From Candidatus Nomurabacteria bacterium GW2011_GWC2_42_20 (GTDB taxonomy: Bacteria > Patescibacteriota > Minisyncoccia > Phycocordibacterales > UBA1550), in assembly GCA_000998425.1 (NCBI GenBank), contig LCDG01000001.1, positions 10,558 to 74,557 of the forward strand: a stretch of 64,000 nucleotides of DNA, given 5' to 3'. Below the pieces are notes generated by a model that saw nothing but the letters and a program-made list of their open reading frames with translations, was not told where the DNA came from and searched no databases. This document shows, one piece after another, positions 5,660 through 11,418 of this stretch. The position numbers and the translations under genes were made by a program. The stretch's first letter is position 1. Each line of letters opens with the position of its first letter.

Positions 5660-7147
5660 ATGGATGCTAAAAATCTTACTATCAAGCAAGCACACGAGCT
5701 ACTCATTAGTAAAAAAATGAGCGTGCTTGAACTTGTGGAAGCAGTACTCAAAGTAGCAGATGGAGCGCGCGACCTTAATGCGTATCTTGAAATTTTTGAT
5801 GATGTGCGAGAGCAGGTTGAAGTTGCACAGAAAATGATAGATGATGGACGCTCAACAATGATGACAGGCATTCCTATCGCCATGAAGGATAATATTTTGA
5901 TCAAGGGCAAAATAGCGAGTGCGTCTTCAAAAATGCTTGAGAATTACACAGCAACATATGATGCGTTCGTGACAAAAAAACTTCGTGATGCTGGAGCTGT
6001 ATTCATTGGCCGTACAAACATGGACGAGTTTGCAATGGGGGGCTCGACAGAGAATTCTGCTTTTGGTGTAACAAAAAACCCACATGACAAAACACGTGTG
6101 CCAGGTGGCTCATCAGGCGGTTCTGCAGCAGCGCTGGCTTCTGGTTCTGCGCTTGGGGCGCTTGGTACAGACACTGGAGGTTCTATTCGCCAACCAGCAG
6201 CTTTTTGTGGAGTGGTTGGACTCAAGCCAACATACGGCAGTGTGTCACGCTCTGGAATTATTGCAATGGCGAGCTCGCTGGACCAAGCCGGCCCATTTGC
6301 GAAAACAGTCGAAGATGCAGAAATTATTTTTGATTGCATAAAAGGGTATGATCCAATGGATAGCACATCTGAACCAGCAGGCGAATCACCAGATTTCGTG
6401 TCGTCGGACGAACGTCTTGGACGCAACCCTGACAATCTTGCTAAAAAAGAACCTAAGAAACCGAAGGTAATTGGTGTACCAACAGAGTTTGTGAATGCAA
6501 AAGGAGTTGATCCGCGTGTTTTGAAAAATTTTGAGGAGTCAATCGAGAAGATGAAAAAGTTAGGGTATGAAGTAAAGGAAATTAACCTAGCTTCCCTCAA
6601 GCAAGGTCTGTCTATTTACTATATTTTGATGCCTGCTGAAGTTTCTTCAAATCTCGCGCGCTTTGATGGTGTGCGTTATGGATACCATGCAAACGGCGCA
6701 AACTTACTTGATGATTATATGCGCTCTCGTGGCGAGGGGTTTGGTGGCGAAGTACGCCGTCGCATTCTCCTCGGCACCTACGTGCTTTCTTCTGGCTACT
6801 ACGACGCGTATTACAGCAAAGCTGTTGCTGCTCGAGAGGTCATCAAGAAAACACTGGAAGTGGCATTTCGAGATGTTGATATTATTGCAACACCTACCAC
6901 CCCCACACCAGCATTCAGAATCGGTGAAAAGTCGAGTGACCCATTACAGATGTACCTTGCAGATATTTTTACTGTACCAGTGAATATTGCTGGAGTCCCA
7001 GCTATTTCAATACCGTCTGGTTTTGTTGAAGAAGGGGATGCTCTACTCCCGCTAGGGATTCAATTCATTGCGCCACATTTTGGCGAGGATGCACTTTTTG
7101 CAACAGGGAAGGACTTTGAAAAAATGCTTGGAGATAATAATATTTAA
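5660..7147 (+). CDS. gatA: Glu-tRNA(Gln) amidotransferase subunit A (amidase family)
   Basis: 495 aa; amidase signature GGSSGGSAAALASG; 3 nt after gatC. Confidence 0.95.
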   Translation: MDAKNLTIKQAHELLISKKMSVLELVEAVLKVADGARDLNAYLEIFDDVREQVEVAQKMIDDGRSTMMTGIPIAMKDNILIKGKIASASSKMLENYTATYDAFVTKKLRDAGAVFIGRTNMDEFAMGGSTENSAFGVTKNPHDKTRVPGGSSGGSAAALASGSALGALGTDTGGSIRQPAAFCGVVGLKPTYGSVSRSGIIAMASSLDQAGPFAKTVEDAEIIFDCIKGYDPMDSTSEPAGESPDFVSSDERLGRNPDNLAKKEPKKPKVIGVPTEFVNAKGVDPRVLKNFEESIEKMKKLGYEVKEINLASLKQGLSIYYILMPAEVSSNLARFDGVRYGYHANGANLLDDYMRSRGEGFGGEVRRRILLGTYVLSSGYYDAYYSKAVAAREVIKKTLEVAFRDVDIIATPTTPTPAFRIGEKSSDPLQMYLADIFTVPVNIAGVPAISIPSGFVEEGDALLPLGIQFIAPHFGEDALFATGKDFEKMLGDNNI

Positions 7148-7150
7148 CGT

Positions 7151-7810
7151 ATGGCAGAACACGCACCAGCTCCAAAGGATACAATGTTTCGCGATGCAGC
7201 GATTGTTGTCACAGCGCTTGTTTTGATGTATGTGAGTACCAACATTACACCAGTCAGTCTCGAGACTGTAGTTTCAGGGGAAATGATGTCCAACGTGCTT
7301 TCATTTTTTGGTATTGATGCTAGGTTAACTACTGCTCAAAATATCGTGCTTTCTTTGCAAAATACATTTGCAGTGCTCGGTATAGTATTTCTAGCGGGTG
7401 CTTTTTGGGCGACATTAAAAATTCGTGAAGTCCACCATGCAGAGCATGAAAAATACGAACCTGTTCATCACGAAAAGACTGTCGAAAAACAGGCAATCGC
7501 CCAGTGGCAGGTGATATTGGACCACGTAAACTCAGAAAACCCTGCCGAATGGAAGCTGGCAATTCTAGAGGCAGATAACATTCTTAATGAGGTTCTTGAT
7601 GATCAAGGATATCTTGGAACGACAGTTGCCGACAAATTGAAAACAATGAGCTCTACCAGGATATCGTCATATAATGAGGTGTGGGATGCGCACAGACTTC
7701 GCAATCAGATCGCACACGGTGGCGCTATTGATATGGAGCTTACTCAAAAAATGGCACGAAACGCTGTGTCGCAGTTCGGAAACGCCTTTAAGGAGCTTGG
7801 ATATCTGTAG
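7151..7810 (+). CDS. hypothetical membrane protein
   Basis: 219-aa ORF with two predicted TM helices, starting 3 nt after gatA. Confidence 0.5.
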   Translation: MAEHAPAPKDTMFRDAAIVVTALVLMYVSTNITPVSLETVVSGEMMSNVLSFFGIDARLTTAQNIVLSLQNTFAVLGIVFLAGAFWATLKIREVHHAEHEKYEPVHHEKTVEKQAIAQWQVILDHVNSENPAEWKLAILEADNILNEVLDDQGYLGTTVADKLKTMSSTRISSYNEVWDAHRLRNQIAHGGAIDMELTQKMARNAVSQFGNAFKELGYL

Positions 7811-7914
7811 GGTAGAATATTGAAATGAGAATACAGAATGCAGAATGTTTAAACAGAAGTGGATACGGCGGCTATTGCAAAATTTAACATAAATGTTATT
7901 ATACAAATTCATAT

Positions 7915-7985
7915 AGCGGGGTAGAGAAGCGGTATCTCATCAGGCTCATAACCTGAAGACGCCCGTTCGATTCGGGCCCCCGCAA
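7915..7985 (+). tRNA. tRNA-Met (anticodon CAU; a 1:72 mismatch suggests the initiator type)
   Basis: Cloverleaf: D-stem gaga/tctc, anticodon stem tcagg/cctga with loop cTCATaa, T-arm gcccg-ttcgatt-cgggc. No CCA is encoded. Confidence 0.7.
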
Positions 7986-8026
7986 CACGAAAATTACAAA
8001 AATGCCGGCAGCTAGAATAAGATAAT

Positions 8027-8103
8027 GTCGGCGTAGCTCAGTTGGTTAGAGCATGGCACTCATAAAGCCAAGGTCGGTGGTTCGATCCCACCCGTCGACA
8101 CCA
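8027..8103 (+). tRNA. tRNA with CAU anticodon (elongator Met or lysidine-modified Ile2); CCA encoded
   Basis: Acceptor gtcggcg/cgtcgac, D-arm tagctcagttggttagagc, anticodon loop cTCATaa, T-arm ggtgg-ttcgatc-ccacc, followed by the 3' terminal sequence a-cca. Confidence 0.8.
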
Positions 8104-8136
8104 GAAAAACTCATTGATGAGTTTTTCTGGTGTCGA
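8095..8136 (+). terminator. perfect hairpin overlapping the 3' end of the tRNA (tRNA-processing/terminator structure)
   Basis: tcgacaccagaaaaactcat-tg-atgagtttttctggtgtcga. Confidence 0.45.
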
Positions 8137-8274
8137 AATTCAAATCAAATACATGATTTGTTCTGGTGGGATAAGTCCCTGTGTCCAAGACACGATTCAG
8201 CTGAATCGCCGTCGACACCCGCAGGTTTGTTTTGCGGACAGTTTCCTGTTAGAATGCGCATGTGAGAAAAATTT

Positions 8275-8348
8275 GCGGTCGTAGCTCAGCTGGTTAGAGC
8301 GCCCGCCTGTCACGCGGGAGGTCGTGGGTTCAAGTCCCATCGACCGCG
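8275..8348 (+). tRNA. tRNA-Asp (GUC)
   Basis: Perfect acceptor gcggtcg/cgaccgc, anticodon arm cccgc-ctGTCac-gcggg, T-arm gtggg-ttcaagt-cccat. Confidence 0.85.
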
Positions 8349-8349
8349 C

Positions 8350-8397
8350 AAATACAAAAATTACCTAACGCTGCTGCGCTGGGTAATTTTTGTATTT
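8350..8397 (+). terminator. 16-bp AT-rich perfect hairpin after tRNA-Asp
   Basis: aaatacaaaaattacc ... ggtaatttttgtattt. Confidence 0.4.
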
Positions 8398-8514
8398 AGG
8401 ATTGAAAAAATGGGCTAAATAGTGTATCGTGTCGAAGTGTCAGTGAGCCGATGTAGGTGTTTTGGTAGGTCTGCAAGAAGACAATAACTGTCTGTGATGT
8501 GCGAATAAAAATAA

Positions 8515-8590
8515 GCCGATGTAGCTCAGTTGGTAGAGTGCGTCCTTGGTAAGGACGAGGTCTCCGGTTCAATCCCGGACATCGGCTCCA
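8515..8590 (+). tRNA. tRNA-Thr (GGU); CCA encoded
   Basis: Acceptor gccgatg/catcggc, anticodon arm cgtcc-ttGGTaa-ggacg, T-arm ccggttcaatcccgg, 3' t-cca. Confidence 0.85.
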
Positions 8591-8663
8591 AATAAGATTT
8601 AGTTTAATTAACGACCACATTCTAGATTTGCTATTGGTCTGCGTGCTGTGTATAATTTAGCGT

Positions 8664-9116
8664 ATGTCTAATCTAAAAATGCCAAGGGGTGAGTGCCAGA
8701 ATTGTGGTGGGGAGCCCGCACGTGCAGGGTATAAATATTGTAGTAATGTTTGTCAGCTTGCGTACCAGCATAAATCGTATATTATAGACTGGAAGGCTGG
8801 AACGGTTAGCGGGTTATCTAGTCTTGGGACAGTGTCCACTCATATCAAACGCTACTTGCGAGAAAAGTATGGGAATAGATGTGTCATTTGTAGTTGGGCG
8901 CAGGTTAATGTTAAGACAGGTCAGGTTCCTCTTGTTGCAGATCATATTGATGGGAAATGGCGCAATAATACTGAAAGTAACCTGCGTCTAATATGTCCAA
9001 ATTGTGATGCAATTTCCCCAACGTATGCCGCATTAAATAAAGGTAATGGACGGATTAATCGCGTGCAGAGCCGAAGATCGCAGGAAGCTCGTTTGTTAGT
9101 AAAAAAGAAGGTGTAA
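8664..9116 (+). CDS. HNH-family endonuclease (Cys-rich Zn-finger plus HNH motif) embedded in the tRNA cluster
   Basis: 150 aa; two CxxC pairs at the N-terminus, then ...VADHIDGKWRNNTESNLRLICPNCDA... (H-N-H with a CxxC clamp). The stop lies 2 nt before the next tRNA. Confidence 0.7.
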   Translation: MSNLKMPRGECQNCGGEPARAGYKYCSNVCQLAYQHKSYIIDWKAGTVSGLSSLGTVSTHIKRYLREKYGNRCVICSWAQVNVKTGQVPLVADHIDGKWRNNTESNLRLICPNCDAISPTYAALNKGNGRINRVQSRRSQEARLLVKKKV

Positions 9117-9117
9117 G

Positions 9118-9191
9118 CCGACCTAGCTCAATTGGTAGAGCAACGGTATCGTAAACCGTAGGTTCCGGGTTCAATTCCCGGGGTTGGCTCA
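9118..9191 (+). tRNA. tRNA-Thr (CGU)
   Basis: Acceptor gccgacc/ggttggc (one G-U pair), anticodon arm acggt-atCGTaa-accgt, T-arm ccgggttcaattcccgg. Confidence 0.85.
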
Positions 9192-9195
9192 AAGA

Positions 9196-9234
9196 AAAAG
9201 AACGAGGCAAAGTTTGCCTCGTTCTTGTTTTGAT
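9196..9234. terminator. bidirectional intrinsic terminator between the tRNA cluster (+) and the NUDIX gene (-)
   Basis: agaacgaggca-aagtt-tgcctcgttct followed by tgttttg, with an A-run on the other side. Confidence 0.7.
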
Positions 9235-9707
9235 CACAATGAATGAATTTTTTTTAGTCCCTCTCTCAACATTATGAAATGAGGGTGAAGCATTATCTTC
9301 GGTGTTACTTCATCTATTGTGAATTCATGCGCAATTAAAACAGCATCACTGTCCTCCTCTTTGGTTGGTCCAGTATTCAAATTCGAAAAGTCGTCTACAA
9401 ACCCTCCAAAAACATGATAGTAGTGGGGGTTTTTGTTTCTCGATAATATCCTCATTAAGAAGACCACAGAATTTTGATCAAGCTGTATGCCAGTTTCCTC
9501 GCCAACTTCGCGCACGAATGCATTCATCGGCAGTTCGTTATTTTCGGTTTTTATAGTCCCCCCAGGAATCCTCCATTTCGGATCCTTATGCTGAATGTTT
9601 TTAACAAGAATGATTTTTCCTGTTTGTACACTCAACACAATTCCTAACGCTACACCATCGTTTTGATTGATTCCTTGGTTTTTATGGTTCAAAATAAACC
9701 TCCACAT
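9234..9707 (-). CDS. NUDIX hydrolase
   Basis: 157 aa; Nudix box PGGTIKTENNELPMNAFVREVGEETGIQL (GX5EX7REVXEEXGI). Confidence 0.8.
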   Translation of the reverse strand: MWRFILNHKNQGINQNDGVALGIVLSVQTGKIILVKNIQHKDPKWRIPGGTIKTENNELPMNAFVREVGEETGIQLDQNSVVFLMRILSRNKNPHYYHVFGGFVDDFSNLNTGPTKEEDSDAVLIAHEFTIDEVTPKIMLHPHFIMLREGLKKIHSL

Positions 9708-9834
9708 TCATTTTAAAAAACATTAATCAAATATTGCTGACTTAAAAGTAACTAATTCTAATTCTTAACTTTTTTAATTATAGCAATAATAATACTGTTT
9801 GTCAACAGTATTGCAGAATGATATACTCAGCTTA

Positions 9835-10725
9835 ATGATTTTAACAAAAGAAGAAATGCGTGCAAAAATAAATGATCTCGAGGCTAGTATGTCCGATGTT
9901 GATTTTTGGACGGACAAGACTAAGGCACAGGCTGTTATAAAGGAAATTGCAGAGCTTAAAGAAAAAATTGCCGGTGTCGGCAAATATGATCGCGGTAATG
10001 CAGTAATGACTATTTTCTCCGGCGCAGGCGGGGATGACTCGGAAGATTTTTCTGGAATGCTCCTTCGTATGTACTTGAAGTTTTTTGAAAAGCAAAATTT
10101 TGAAGCAAAGCTTCTTCACGAAAATAAGAACGACCATGGTGGATATCGCAATATCACACTCGAAATCCATGGGAAAAATGCATACGGAATGCTAAAAAAT
10201 GAATCAGGTGTCCACCGTCTTGTTCGTATTTCGCCATTCAACGCAAAGAAGCTTCGGCATACATCGTTTTCAATGGTTGAAGTTATTCCAGATTTCAGGG
10301 ATAGCGGAAGTGATGAGATGGTTATTCCTGCTGATGATATAAAGATTGAGTTTAGTCGTTCGTCTGGTCCTGGTGGGCAAAATGTAAACAAGCGCGAGAC
10401 TGCAGTGCGTGTGGTACACGTTCCCACAGGAATAGCCGTGCATGTCGAAACCGAGCGCTCTCAGGAGCAAAATCGTGAAAAGGCAATTCAGATACTAAAA
10501 GGAAAACTCTTTAAAAAACAGGACGATGAAAGAAAGGCAACTGAGAGTGGCATGTATATCAGTAAGACTACAGAAATAGAATGGGGGAATCAAATTCGCT
10601 CATATGTACTTCACCCGTACAAGATGGTGAAGGATCATCGTACTAATGTAGAGACATCAAACGTTGACGCAGTGTTAGAAGATGGCGAGATAATGCAATT
10701 CATTGAAGCAGAACGTGATTTATAA
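9835..10725 (+). CDS. prfB: peptide chain release factor 2 (single frame, no programmed frameshift; short domain 1)
   Basis: SPF tripeptide in RISPFNAKKLRHTSF, GGQ in SSGPGGQNVNKRETAVRV. The ATG at 9835 is in frame; an alternative TTG lies at 9799. No CUU-UGA slippery site was found upstream. Confidence 0.85.
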   Translation: MILTKEEMRAKINDLEASMSDVDFWTDKTKAQAVIKEIAELKEKIAGVGKYDRGNAVMTIFSGAGGDDSEDFSGMLLRMYLKFFEKQNFEAKLLHENKNDHGGYRNITLEIHGKNAYGMLKNESGVHRLVRISPFNAKKLRHTSFSMVEVIPDFRDSGSDEMVIPADDIKIEFSRSSGPGGQNVNKRETAVRVVHVPTGIAVHVETERSQEQNREKAIQILKGKLFKKQDDERKATESGMYISKTTEIEWGNQIRSYVLHPYKMVKDHRTNVETSNVDAVLEDGEIMQFIEAERDL

Positions 10726-10737
10726 TATACTTAACCG

Positions 10738-11418
10738 ATGATTTACTTCGACAATGTTTCAAAATCCTACCAAGATGGCACTGTAGCGCTAAATGGTGTA
10801 ACACTTTCAATAAAACAAGGAGAGTTTGTTTCAATTGTTGGGCATTCAGGTGCCGGCAAGACGACTCTCGTGAAGCTACTTTTGGGCGAAGACAATCCAA
10901 CGACTGGAAGTGTGTCCTTCGACTCTGTTAATATTAAAAAAATTAAGGCAAAAGATATGCCAGAGCTTCGTCGTCGTATAGGTGTTATTTTCCAAGATTT
11001 TCGCCTCCTTCCCAACAAGACCGCGTATGAAAACGTGGCATTTGCAATGGAGGTCGCAGGTAAAGCAGACGAGGAAATTGCATCAGATGTCCCTCATGTA
11101 CTAGAACTTGTTGATCTCACAAAAAAAATGTGGAACTTTCCTCGACAGCTTTCTGGAGGCGAGTTGCAACGTGTCGCTATTGCGCGCGCTATTGTGAATC
11201 AGCCAGACTTGATTATTGCCGATGAACCAACAGGGAACCTTGATCCAATCAACACTTACGAAATCGTACAAATTTTAAAGAAAATTAATGATATGGGGAC
11301 AACGGTTATCTTAACGACTCACAATAAGGGCGTAGTAGAGGCTCTTGGGAAACGCGTTATTACAATGGACCACGGTAGAATCATTCGTGACGATTCGACT
11401 GGCAAATATGCACTTTAG
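10738..11418 (+). CDS. ftsE: cell-division ABC transporter ATP-binding protein FtsE
   Basis: Walker A GHSGAGKTT, signature LSGGELQRVAIARA, Walker B LIIADEPTGNLD; followed directly by ftsX. Confidence 0.9.
   Translation: MIYFDNVSKSYQDGTVALNGVTLSIKQGEFVSIVGHSGAGKTTLVKLLLGEDNPTTGSVSFDSVNIKKIKAKDMPELRRRIGVIFQDFRLLPNKTAYENVAFAMEVAGKADEEIASDVPHVLELVDLTKKMWNFPRQLSGGELQRVAIARAIVNQPDLIIADEPTGNLDPINTYEIVQILKKINDMGTTVILTTHNKGVVEALGKRVITMDHGRIIRDDSTGKYAL

Follow-up and report, generated by a model that had tools for sequence, protein, structure and literature searches.

In a 64,000-nucleotide stretch of the genome of Candidatus Nomurabacteria bacterium GW2011_GWC2_42_20 (contig LCDG01000001.1), a cluster of five tRNA genes harbors what is best read from its sequence as a single cassette at positions 8611–9226, consisting of a strong promoter, a leaderless open reading frame (ORF) for a zinc-ribbon/HNH protein, the gene for tRNA-Thr(CGU) and a terminator. 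We attach a probability of about 0.68 to the view that this ORF is a free-standing homing-endonuclease gene whose family has specialized in the 5' flank of tRNA genes and spreads by the mechanism proposed below. The family's targets appear to differ by group, being tRNA-Thr(CGU) in the candidate phyla radiation (CPR), mostly tRNA-Thr(UGU) or tRNA-Tyr in other bacteria, and many different tRNAs in phage arrays. Throughout, the window denotes the entire 64-kb stretch, to which coordinates refer, features lie on its forward strand unless stated otherwise, and L-numbers are the labels of comparison loci fetched for this analysis.

The ORF (8664–9116) encodes 150 amino acids, lies between two tRNA-Thr genes just as an earlier note on this DNA had described, and is predicted to combine an N-terminal Cys4 zinc ribbon with a zinc-bound HNH nuclease. 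Residues invariant across 86 aligned homologues are the ribbon ligands C11, C14, C26, and C30, a second Cys4 site of the CxxC...CxxC type (C73, C76, C111, and C114) and, for catalysis, D93-H94, N106, and D115, with a D115 to His replacement seen in L012 and in gp177 of phage HdH2. The ORF has the beta-beta-alpha-metal fold by which the HNH superfamily is recognized, and matches PHROG HNH families at 4e-13 as well as, weakly, the HNH parts of ZorE and IscB among NCBIfam models. A Pfam-A scan returned no family at E ≤ 0.01; the subfamily is a divergent one. A sequence search of the PDB returned only I-HmuI, at E 0.15. The protein is accordingly best described as a probable metal-dependent nuclease of the HNH (His-Me finger) superfamily, in a family comprising 7330 clusters at 50% identity (E ≤ 1e-3). 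Its gene is an independent one, with its own predicted promoter and intact tRNA genes on either side, rather than a passenger of an intron or intein.

The TAA stop codon of the ORF occupies 9114–9116 and the first base of tRNA-Thr(CGU) (9117–9190) is nucleotide 9117, a gap of 0 nt where the earlier note had counted two. We measured, in 172 loci fetched by protein look-ups, a metagenome scan and a viral scan, how far from the ORF stop the next tRNA on the same strand begins. Among CPR-type copies, defined by an identity of at least 57%, 66 of 67 have a same-strand tRNA starting between −45 and +63 nt from the stop, and in 62 this is tRNA-Thr(CGU). A tRNA close to the stop is also found for 18 of 23 more distant cellular copies, mostly Thr(UGU) or Tyr, and for half of the copies on viral contigs (38 of 76), where 19 anticodons are represented and several paralogues often share one tRNA array. 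For 28 of the CPR-type copies an offset of exactly −10 means that the ORF ends on the tRNA's own T8-A9-G10 (or T8-A9-A10), which gives rise to 'P-x-stop' C-termini. The earlier suggestion that such HNH genes home to tRNA loci is supported by a family-wide association far stronger and more specific than had been claimed. Among the viral arrays, L081/L098 (781–860 region) and L104 have, immediately behind an HNH paralogue, a tRNA to which ARAGORN assigns a four-base anticodon (gtca), and ARAGORN labels as Pyl a viral tRNA with anticodon CTA in L118; these phage tRNAs may be frameshift or amber suppressors.

Upstream, a predicted sigma-70-type promoter (TTGCTA-17-TATAAT, 8628–8656, 10 of 12 consensus matches) places its −35 hexamer at 8628–8633 and its −10 hexamer at 8651–8656, only 7 nt before the ATG at 8664. 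An alignment of 42 loci yields the family consensus TTCAATnTACGACCACTT..TTGACAnTGGTC..(17-nt spacer)..TATACT, with TTGACA as the −35 element and 6 nt between the −10 element and the ATG, and the same promoter–ATG geometry recurs in distant cellular homologues. Since this arrangement leaves no space for a ribosome-binding site, the mRNA is probably leaderless, and it is probably co-transcribed with tRNA-Thr(CGU); no terminator was seen between the ORF and the tRNA gene, and one follows the tRNA at 9198–9226. The −35 hexamer is flanked by two partly palindromic boxes, ACGACCA (8611–8617) and TGGTCTG (8635–8641), whose core ACCA/TGGT is near-invariant across the 42 loci while the outer pairs covary weakly. 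The boxes, as ACGACCA and TGGTC(G/T), persist across lineages whose prfB genes are only about 45–55% identical, a conservation unusually strong for non-coding DNA, and they may constitute an operator-like motif. Two other readings of the boxes were tried and rejected. A covarying RNA or DNA hairpin finds no support in the composition of the outer pairs (G-C 17, A-T 6, A-C 11 for one and C-G 18, C-T 14 for the other), and the left box, considered as a tRNA-Thr 5' end duplicated as target site of the cassette, does not covary by eye with the acceptor sequence of the downstream tRNA.

In the mechanism that we propose, the nuclease would cut alleles devoid of the HNH gene in or beside the conserved tRNA gene, and repair templated by the occupied allele would then install the HNH gene at the same position, at times together with the neighboring tRNA allele. 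A single transcript would contain both the leaderless nuclease mRNA and pre-tRNA-Thr(CGU), and RNase P cleavage at 9116/9117 would leave an mRNA ending exactly at its stop codon, while in relatives whose stop lies at tRNA nucleotides 8–10 the same cleavage would strip the stop from the mRNA. Either way, maturation of the tRNA would limit synthesis of the nuclease, as has been proposed for T4 SegB and F-Tfl.

Homing endonucleases residing inside tRNA clusters are textbook knowledge for phages T4 and T5, and the HNH cassette is, on our best reading, of the T4 SegB/T5 F-Tfl type. SegB is a free-standing GIY-YIG homing endonuclease gene in the T4 tRNA cluster, whose ORF end touches the downstream tRNA so that tRNA maturation severs the stop from the last sense codon; its cleavage and homing are experimentally established, with flanking tRNA genes carried along, and in the Discussion of the source paper tRNA maturation is proposed to limit SegB expression (PMC2330249). 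The window gene resembles SegB in being free-standing within a tRNA cluster and in touching the downstream tRNA with the end of its ORF, but differs in having an HNH rather than a GIY-YIG fold and in residing on a bacterial chromosome rather than in a phage genome, and for it cleavage and homing are what we infer. The T5 tRNA region encodes the HNH endonucleases F-TflI and F-TflII as well as F-TflIV (hegA, hegC, and hegD; Akulenko 2004, PMID 15456135, as cited in PMC2330249 and PMC10644984), whose ORFs, like that of the window, are interspersed among tRNA genes and which are polymorphic among T5-like phages. The 3' ends of hegC, hegD, and T5.069 overlap the 5' ends of downstream tRNAs by 14–24 nt. 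Unlike the family described here, the F-Tfl enzymes belong to the NUMOD4-type HNH subfamily and lack the N-terminal Cys4 ribbon, and hhalign of the family profile assigned hegC a probability of 5% and T5.069 one of 0.2%, indicating that these two are unrelated to the family.

A closer phage relative is gp177 of the T5-like Escherichia phage vB_EcoS_HdH2, homologous over its full length (34% identity, E 5e-24) and equipped with zinc ribbon and HNH domain alike, which lies directly 5' of a tRNA-Thr gene with a 1-nt overlap, at a site where T5 lacks it. Unlike the HNH gene of the window it is phage-borne, and its target, judged from T5 synteny, is Thr(UGU) and not Thr(CGU). Related uncharacterised phage HNH genes are represented by PHROG 1271, 10822, and 14736, and an HNH homologue of Streptomyces phage Jollison overlaps a tRNA-Gly gene by 15 nt. 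The phage homologues in L108, L109, and L115 are preceded by a Shine-Dalgarno sequence, unlike the leaderless promoter module of CPR copies. In mycobacteria, their plasmids and their phages, HNH genes are the most widespread coding sequence in tRNA array units and have been implicated in spreading and diversifying tRNA repertoires (PMC5966550, PMC6409571); these reports describe neither a precise ORF–tRNA junction nor a fixed tRNA partner. Already known, then, are free-standing endonuclease genes ending on tRNAs in T4 and T5 and HNH genes in mycobacterial tRNA arrays, and what appears new is a clade, residing on CPR chromosomes, whose tRNA partner is almost invariably Thr(CGU), together with a leaderless promoter module and a stop codon inside the tRNA. 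The literature searched contained no description of a chromosomal HNH clade tied to a single tRNA gene across much of CPR.

Conservation of the gene at this position in all relatives, which the earlier note took as the sign of an ordinary host gene, is not what was found. Five close lineages were chosen without regard to HNH, by a prfB 85–95% identical to that of the window, and in four of the six that they make up with the window's own species (L185, L186/187, L188/189, and L190) the locus gatA–orf219–tRNA cluster–prfB is present without the HNH gene and without any HNH remnant. The gene is present in the other two, the window's species and L191, where the protein is 71% identical. The nearest non-identical HNH protein overall is 78% identical, yet the database holds more than 100 prfB clusters 81–95% identical to that of the window. 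Distances between HNH copies hardly track those between host genes, Mantel rho being 0.16 for HNH versus prfB and 0.03 for HNH versus ftsE, as against 0.60 for prfB versus ftsE, and the genomic context of HNH copies varies outside the tRNA.

The tRNA-Thr(CGU) of the window is 93–97% identical to HNH-linked copies in L013, L023, L031, and L043 and by eye matches that of L191 almost base for base, whereas it aligns at only ~60% identity with the HNH-less copies in L185/186/190 and L188. For the HNH-less copies of close relatives, median identity to HNH-linked copies is 0.62–0.70, and in L186 and L190 the tRNA-Thr(CGU) gene lies on the other side of Thr(GGU). Alleles so divergent and displaced point to turnover of the tRNA gene between close relatives. 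The idea that HNH gene and tRNA always move as one unit was rejected, L042 and L049 having HNH proteins 86% identical and different tRNA-Thr alleles.

These data must be set against the possibility, which we consider unlikely, that HNH is a domesticated, vertically inherited and immobile host gene of Parcubacteria, with some cellular role (repair, defence or control of the tRNA-Thr operon, for example), and that its absences reflect simple loss. Several findings do weigh in this direction and against a homing gene. Nearly all of the ~67 CPR copies look intact (L069 and L071 match only from residue ~39–44) and their catalytic residues and zinc ligands are invariant, whereas under the classical homing cycle a gene should often decay once it is fixed. 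The ratio of nonsynonymous to synonymous divergence (dN/dS) is 0.04–0.19 in unsaturated pairs, attesting to strong purifying selection, and mean pairwise identity is higher for HNH (67%) than for prfB (52%) or ftsE (59%). The promoter and box module is conserved, at least 40 HNH loci keep the prfB–ftsE neighborhood, and in some clades HNH and host genes diverge together, so a large share of the inheritance may be vertical. In addition, the promoter and the leaderless status are predictions from consensus matches, and, as L042 and L049 illustrate, nuclease and tRNA allele can part company. An immobile gene, for its part, accords poorly with the remnant-free absence in four of six close relatives, with the decoupling of HNH from host distances, and with the multi-copy, polymorphic nature of the phage relatives. 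In several pairs HNH dS also falls below that of the flanking ftsE and prfB genes (for example 0.67 versus 4.4 and 1.9), an argument tempered by the noise of dS estimates above ~1 and by a sample of six closely related lineages; some prfB dN values proved to be artefacts of gapped high-scoring segment pairs and were disregarded. The prfB synteny in turn is a property of the tRNA-Thr(CGU) gene itself, because loci without HNH have the same neighborhood. The co-divergence of some clades suggests that inheritance is probably a mix of vertical descent and transfer, and for the homing-endonuclease gene that we favor we infer mobility alongside strong purifying selection.

A more far-reaching proposal, to which we lend only slight credence, regards the cassette as a self-propagating tRNA gene, a tRNA 'gene drive' of CPR. 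The leaderless nuclease ORF would lie inside the 5' leader of pre-tRNA-Thr(CGU), often with the tRNA's U8-A9-G10 as its stop codon, which would render translation and RNase P maturation mutually exclusive for each transcript. Successive homing events would supplant resident tRNA-Thr(CGU) alleles, accounting for the three very different alleles in two positions found among relatives with prfB identities of 87–95%, and the ACGACCA/TGGTC boxes would serve as an autoregulatory operator for the nuclease.

Elsewhere in the cluster, short copies of tRNA termini in the spacers had been interpreted in the earlier note as att-like remnants or footprints of past insertions. The copy of a tRNA 3' end exists, although its placement needed correction: the repeat CCGTCGACACC, 11 nt long, occupies 8092–8102, at the 3' end of the second tRNA(CAU) gene (Met2), and 8209–8219 rather than 8212–8221. 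The copy of a 5' end, AGCCGATGTAG, is found exactly where it had been placed, at 8446–8456 and 8514–8524, and extends to 23 nt at 83% identity (8446–8468 versus 8514–8536). Within the window each 11-mer has exactly two occurrences, where shuffles lead one to expect 0.01. Both are unchanged in nine strain variants that share an identical HNH protein, and have homologues in other species; in the same variants the Thr(GGU)–HNH–Thr(CGU) block is invariant, and the other spacers differ by indels of 33–343 nt. That the repeats are chance matches has next to nothing to recommend it. Being only 11 nt long, some such repeat would not be very unlikely among the roughly one million position pairs of 1.5 kb, but the low expectation for each 11-mer, the exact coincidence of both with tRNA termini and their conservation in strains and species refute this notion.

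The two CCGTCGACACC copies, of which the second (8209–8219) is invariant in the nine strain variants, enclose a 105-nt element (8104–8208) in which the tRNA 3' end recurs in inverted form, together with a second hairpin and the sequences GGGATAAGTCCC, GTGTCCAAGACAC, and CGATTCAGCTGAATCG. Elements of this type bear the signature GTCCAAGAC...CGAWTC-hairpin, with homologues downstream of tRNA-Met2 (L187 and L190) and of tRNA-Asp (L186, L187, and L190); in each of them the 3' end of the preceding tRNA appears inverted at the start and is repeated at the close. A repeat search also revealed a perfect 20-bp hairpin (8095–8136) whose 5' arm is the 3' end of the second tRNA including its CCA, and whose pairing is kept in L190 through compensatory changes; the region 8027–8274 folds with z = −6.45. 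Hairpins reaching into the acceptor strand or encoded CCA of the preceding tRNA (8095–8136 in the window, L190:214–270 and L190:432–520) recur at Met2 and Asp, again with compensatory changes keeping them, and such a terminator-like structure, because it takes in the acceptor strand, would sequester the 3' end of the precursor tRNA. A 22-bp hairpin following tRNA-Asp (8350–8397) is deleted or replaced in some strains, namely by a deletion in L174 and by a different hairpin plus a 343-nt insertion in L175 and L180. This insertion into the Asp–Thr(GGU) spacer (L175:1844–2351, L180:424–931, equivalent to 8350–8514) is confined to some strains of the same species and carries a 75-aa Cys-rich ORF (MICWLCCGSGE...CPCCKGSG...) and hairpins of its own.

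The first copy of the 5'-end repeat belongs to a pseudo tRNA-Thr 5' fragment (AGCCGATGTAGgtgtTTTGGTAG) followed by ~45 nt, which together span 8446–8513. Homologous units share a derived TGTTTTGGTAGG, present as an exact 12-mer in both the window and L191. In L191 the unit lies between HNH and tRNA-Thr(CGU), and in L188 a tandem array of units (…CTGTTTTGGTAGT…), whose last base differs from the TGTTTTGGTAGG 12-mer, precedes tRNA-Thr(GGU). That array (L188:5272–5595) comprises at least two or three copies of ~98 nt each, starting with GCCGATGTAGCTGTTTTGGTAG, and is interrupted by a run of N.

Judged by sequence comparison, the short repeats are real footprints of recurrent rearrangement at tRNA termini, and to this extent the earlier reading stands; its 'att-like' label fits the 3'-end repeat loosely and the 5'-end repeat not at all. 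The view that the repeats are attachment-site remnants of mobile elements which an integrase inserted at tRNA genes and which were later deleted is rather doubtful. It draws on tyrosine-integrase genes followed by a duplicated 3' half of tRNA-Thr(GGU), from anticodon loop to 3' end, in the same cluster of two relatives (L185:1117–2330 and L191:3111–4330), which indicate that an integrative element uses tRNA-Thr(GGU) as attachment site in close relatives, and on the small inserts, bordered by 3'-end direct repeats, that relatives carry downstream of Met2, Asp, Thr(GGU), and Thr(CGU). However, these integrase remnants are found in L185 and L191 and not in the window, where the 11-nt 3'-end repeat surrounds a 105-nt element devoid of an integrase and where the ORFs of the cluster and its immediate flanks (6500–11000) include none. 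The repeats span just 11 nt, and the inserts, small and structured, are homologous to one another and recur at different tRNAs, with an extra inverted copy of a tRNA end that is not explained by attachment sites. Integrases targeting tRNA genes use the 3' part, whereas the second repeat is a tRNA 5' end.

For this 5'-end repeat (8446–8468), the alternative that it derives from a tRNA-Thr gene, tandemly duplicated or displaced and since decayed, rather than being an insertion footprint, has some prospects but falls short of being the likelier account. Decay of this kind is visible elsewhere in the cluster, the extra 98 nt before tRNA-Asp in L175, L176, and L180 being a recognizably decayed tandem tRNA-Asp copy, and the unit is tandemly repeated in L188. 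The fragment moreover sits at the exact place of the resident tRNA-Thr(CGU) in L186 and L190, behind the same promoter-like sequence (TTGAAA-17-TATCGT, 8402–8430, upstream of the Thr tRNAs in the window), a homologue of which directly precedes that resident gene. Against this, similarity ends after tRNA position 22, and the window and L191 (TGTTTTGGTAGG) and L188 (TGTTTTGGTAGT) share a derived D-loop absent from real tRNAs, while the first 10 nt of the fragments match whichever tRNA adjoins, a combination suggesting a propagating unit rather than independent decay. Our preferred reading is that small elements bearing copies of tRNA termini would accumulate in indel-prone spacers, by a process separate from HNH.

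The cluster itself conforms to the earlier description, ARAGORN and Rfam agreeing on five tRNA genes, all on the forward strand: tRNA(CAU) no. 1 (7915–7986; Rfam 60 bits), tRNA(CAU) no. 2 (8027–8103), tRNA-Asp(GUC) (8275–8349), tRNA-Thr(GGU) (8515–8590), and tRNA-Thr(CGU) at the coordinates given above. Reading of the sequence likewise upholds the count of two genes with an encoded CCA, Met2 and Thr(GGU), and three without. An Rfam search of 7000–10000 at E ≤ 1 returned these five tRNAs plus sub-threshold matches judged to be chance, leaving the spacers with no known RNA family. The first tRNA(CAU) has an A1/A72 mismatch and an A11-T24 pair, hallmarks of initiator tRNAs, together with an anticodon stem closed by just two G-C pairs, and is probably the initiator tRNA-fMet. 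The second carries an A31/A39 mismatch and is either an elongator tRNA-Met or a lysidine-modified tRNA-Ile2; no ORF of the 64-kb window contains the SGGxDS motif of TilS-type PP-loop enzymes, a weak negative from a motif search alone. Sister strains (L173:1791–1863) possess after tRNA-Met1 33 nt that form the second arm of a hairpin and are missing from 7987–8026 of the window, which leaves its tRNA-Met1 without a terminator-like hairpin. In the strain variant L178 (1–1950, versus window 6164–8100) gatA and orf219 are only 71% and 65% identical to those of the window at the DNA level, identity is 100% from tRNA-Met2 onward, and tRNA-Met1 is inverted at the junction; this locus is either a recombinant of divergent lineages or a chimeric assembly breaking at a tRNA.

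The terminator that closes the cassette (9198–9226; 13 pairs with a T run on each strand) is bidirectional and shared, on both strands, with a convergent NUDIX gene. Besides this gene the cluster is flanked by gatA, a 219-aa ORF (orf219), prfB, and ftsE, and the window matches metagenome-assembled genomes of Candidatus Campbellbacteria/Parcubacteria. The gene for release factor 2 (RF2; 9799–10725) is called with a TTG start and 308 aa, and with 296 or 222 aa in identical or near-identical strains; ~300 aa is short for RF2.

The association of HNH genes with tRNA 5' ends has a practical consequence for annotation, as ORF callers extend these genes into the tRNA, yielding the 'P-x-stop' C-termini noted above. 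Were the proposed homing cycle correct, it would provide a mechanism explaining the fast turnover of tRNA-Thr(CGU) alleles and of cluster spacers in reduced genomes, and would define a family of ~150-aa nucleases that probably recognize tRNA-gene DNA. It would also present a natural mRNA whose stop codon lies inside a tRNA, and thereby a nuclease whose dosage is coupled to RNase P.

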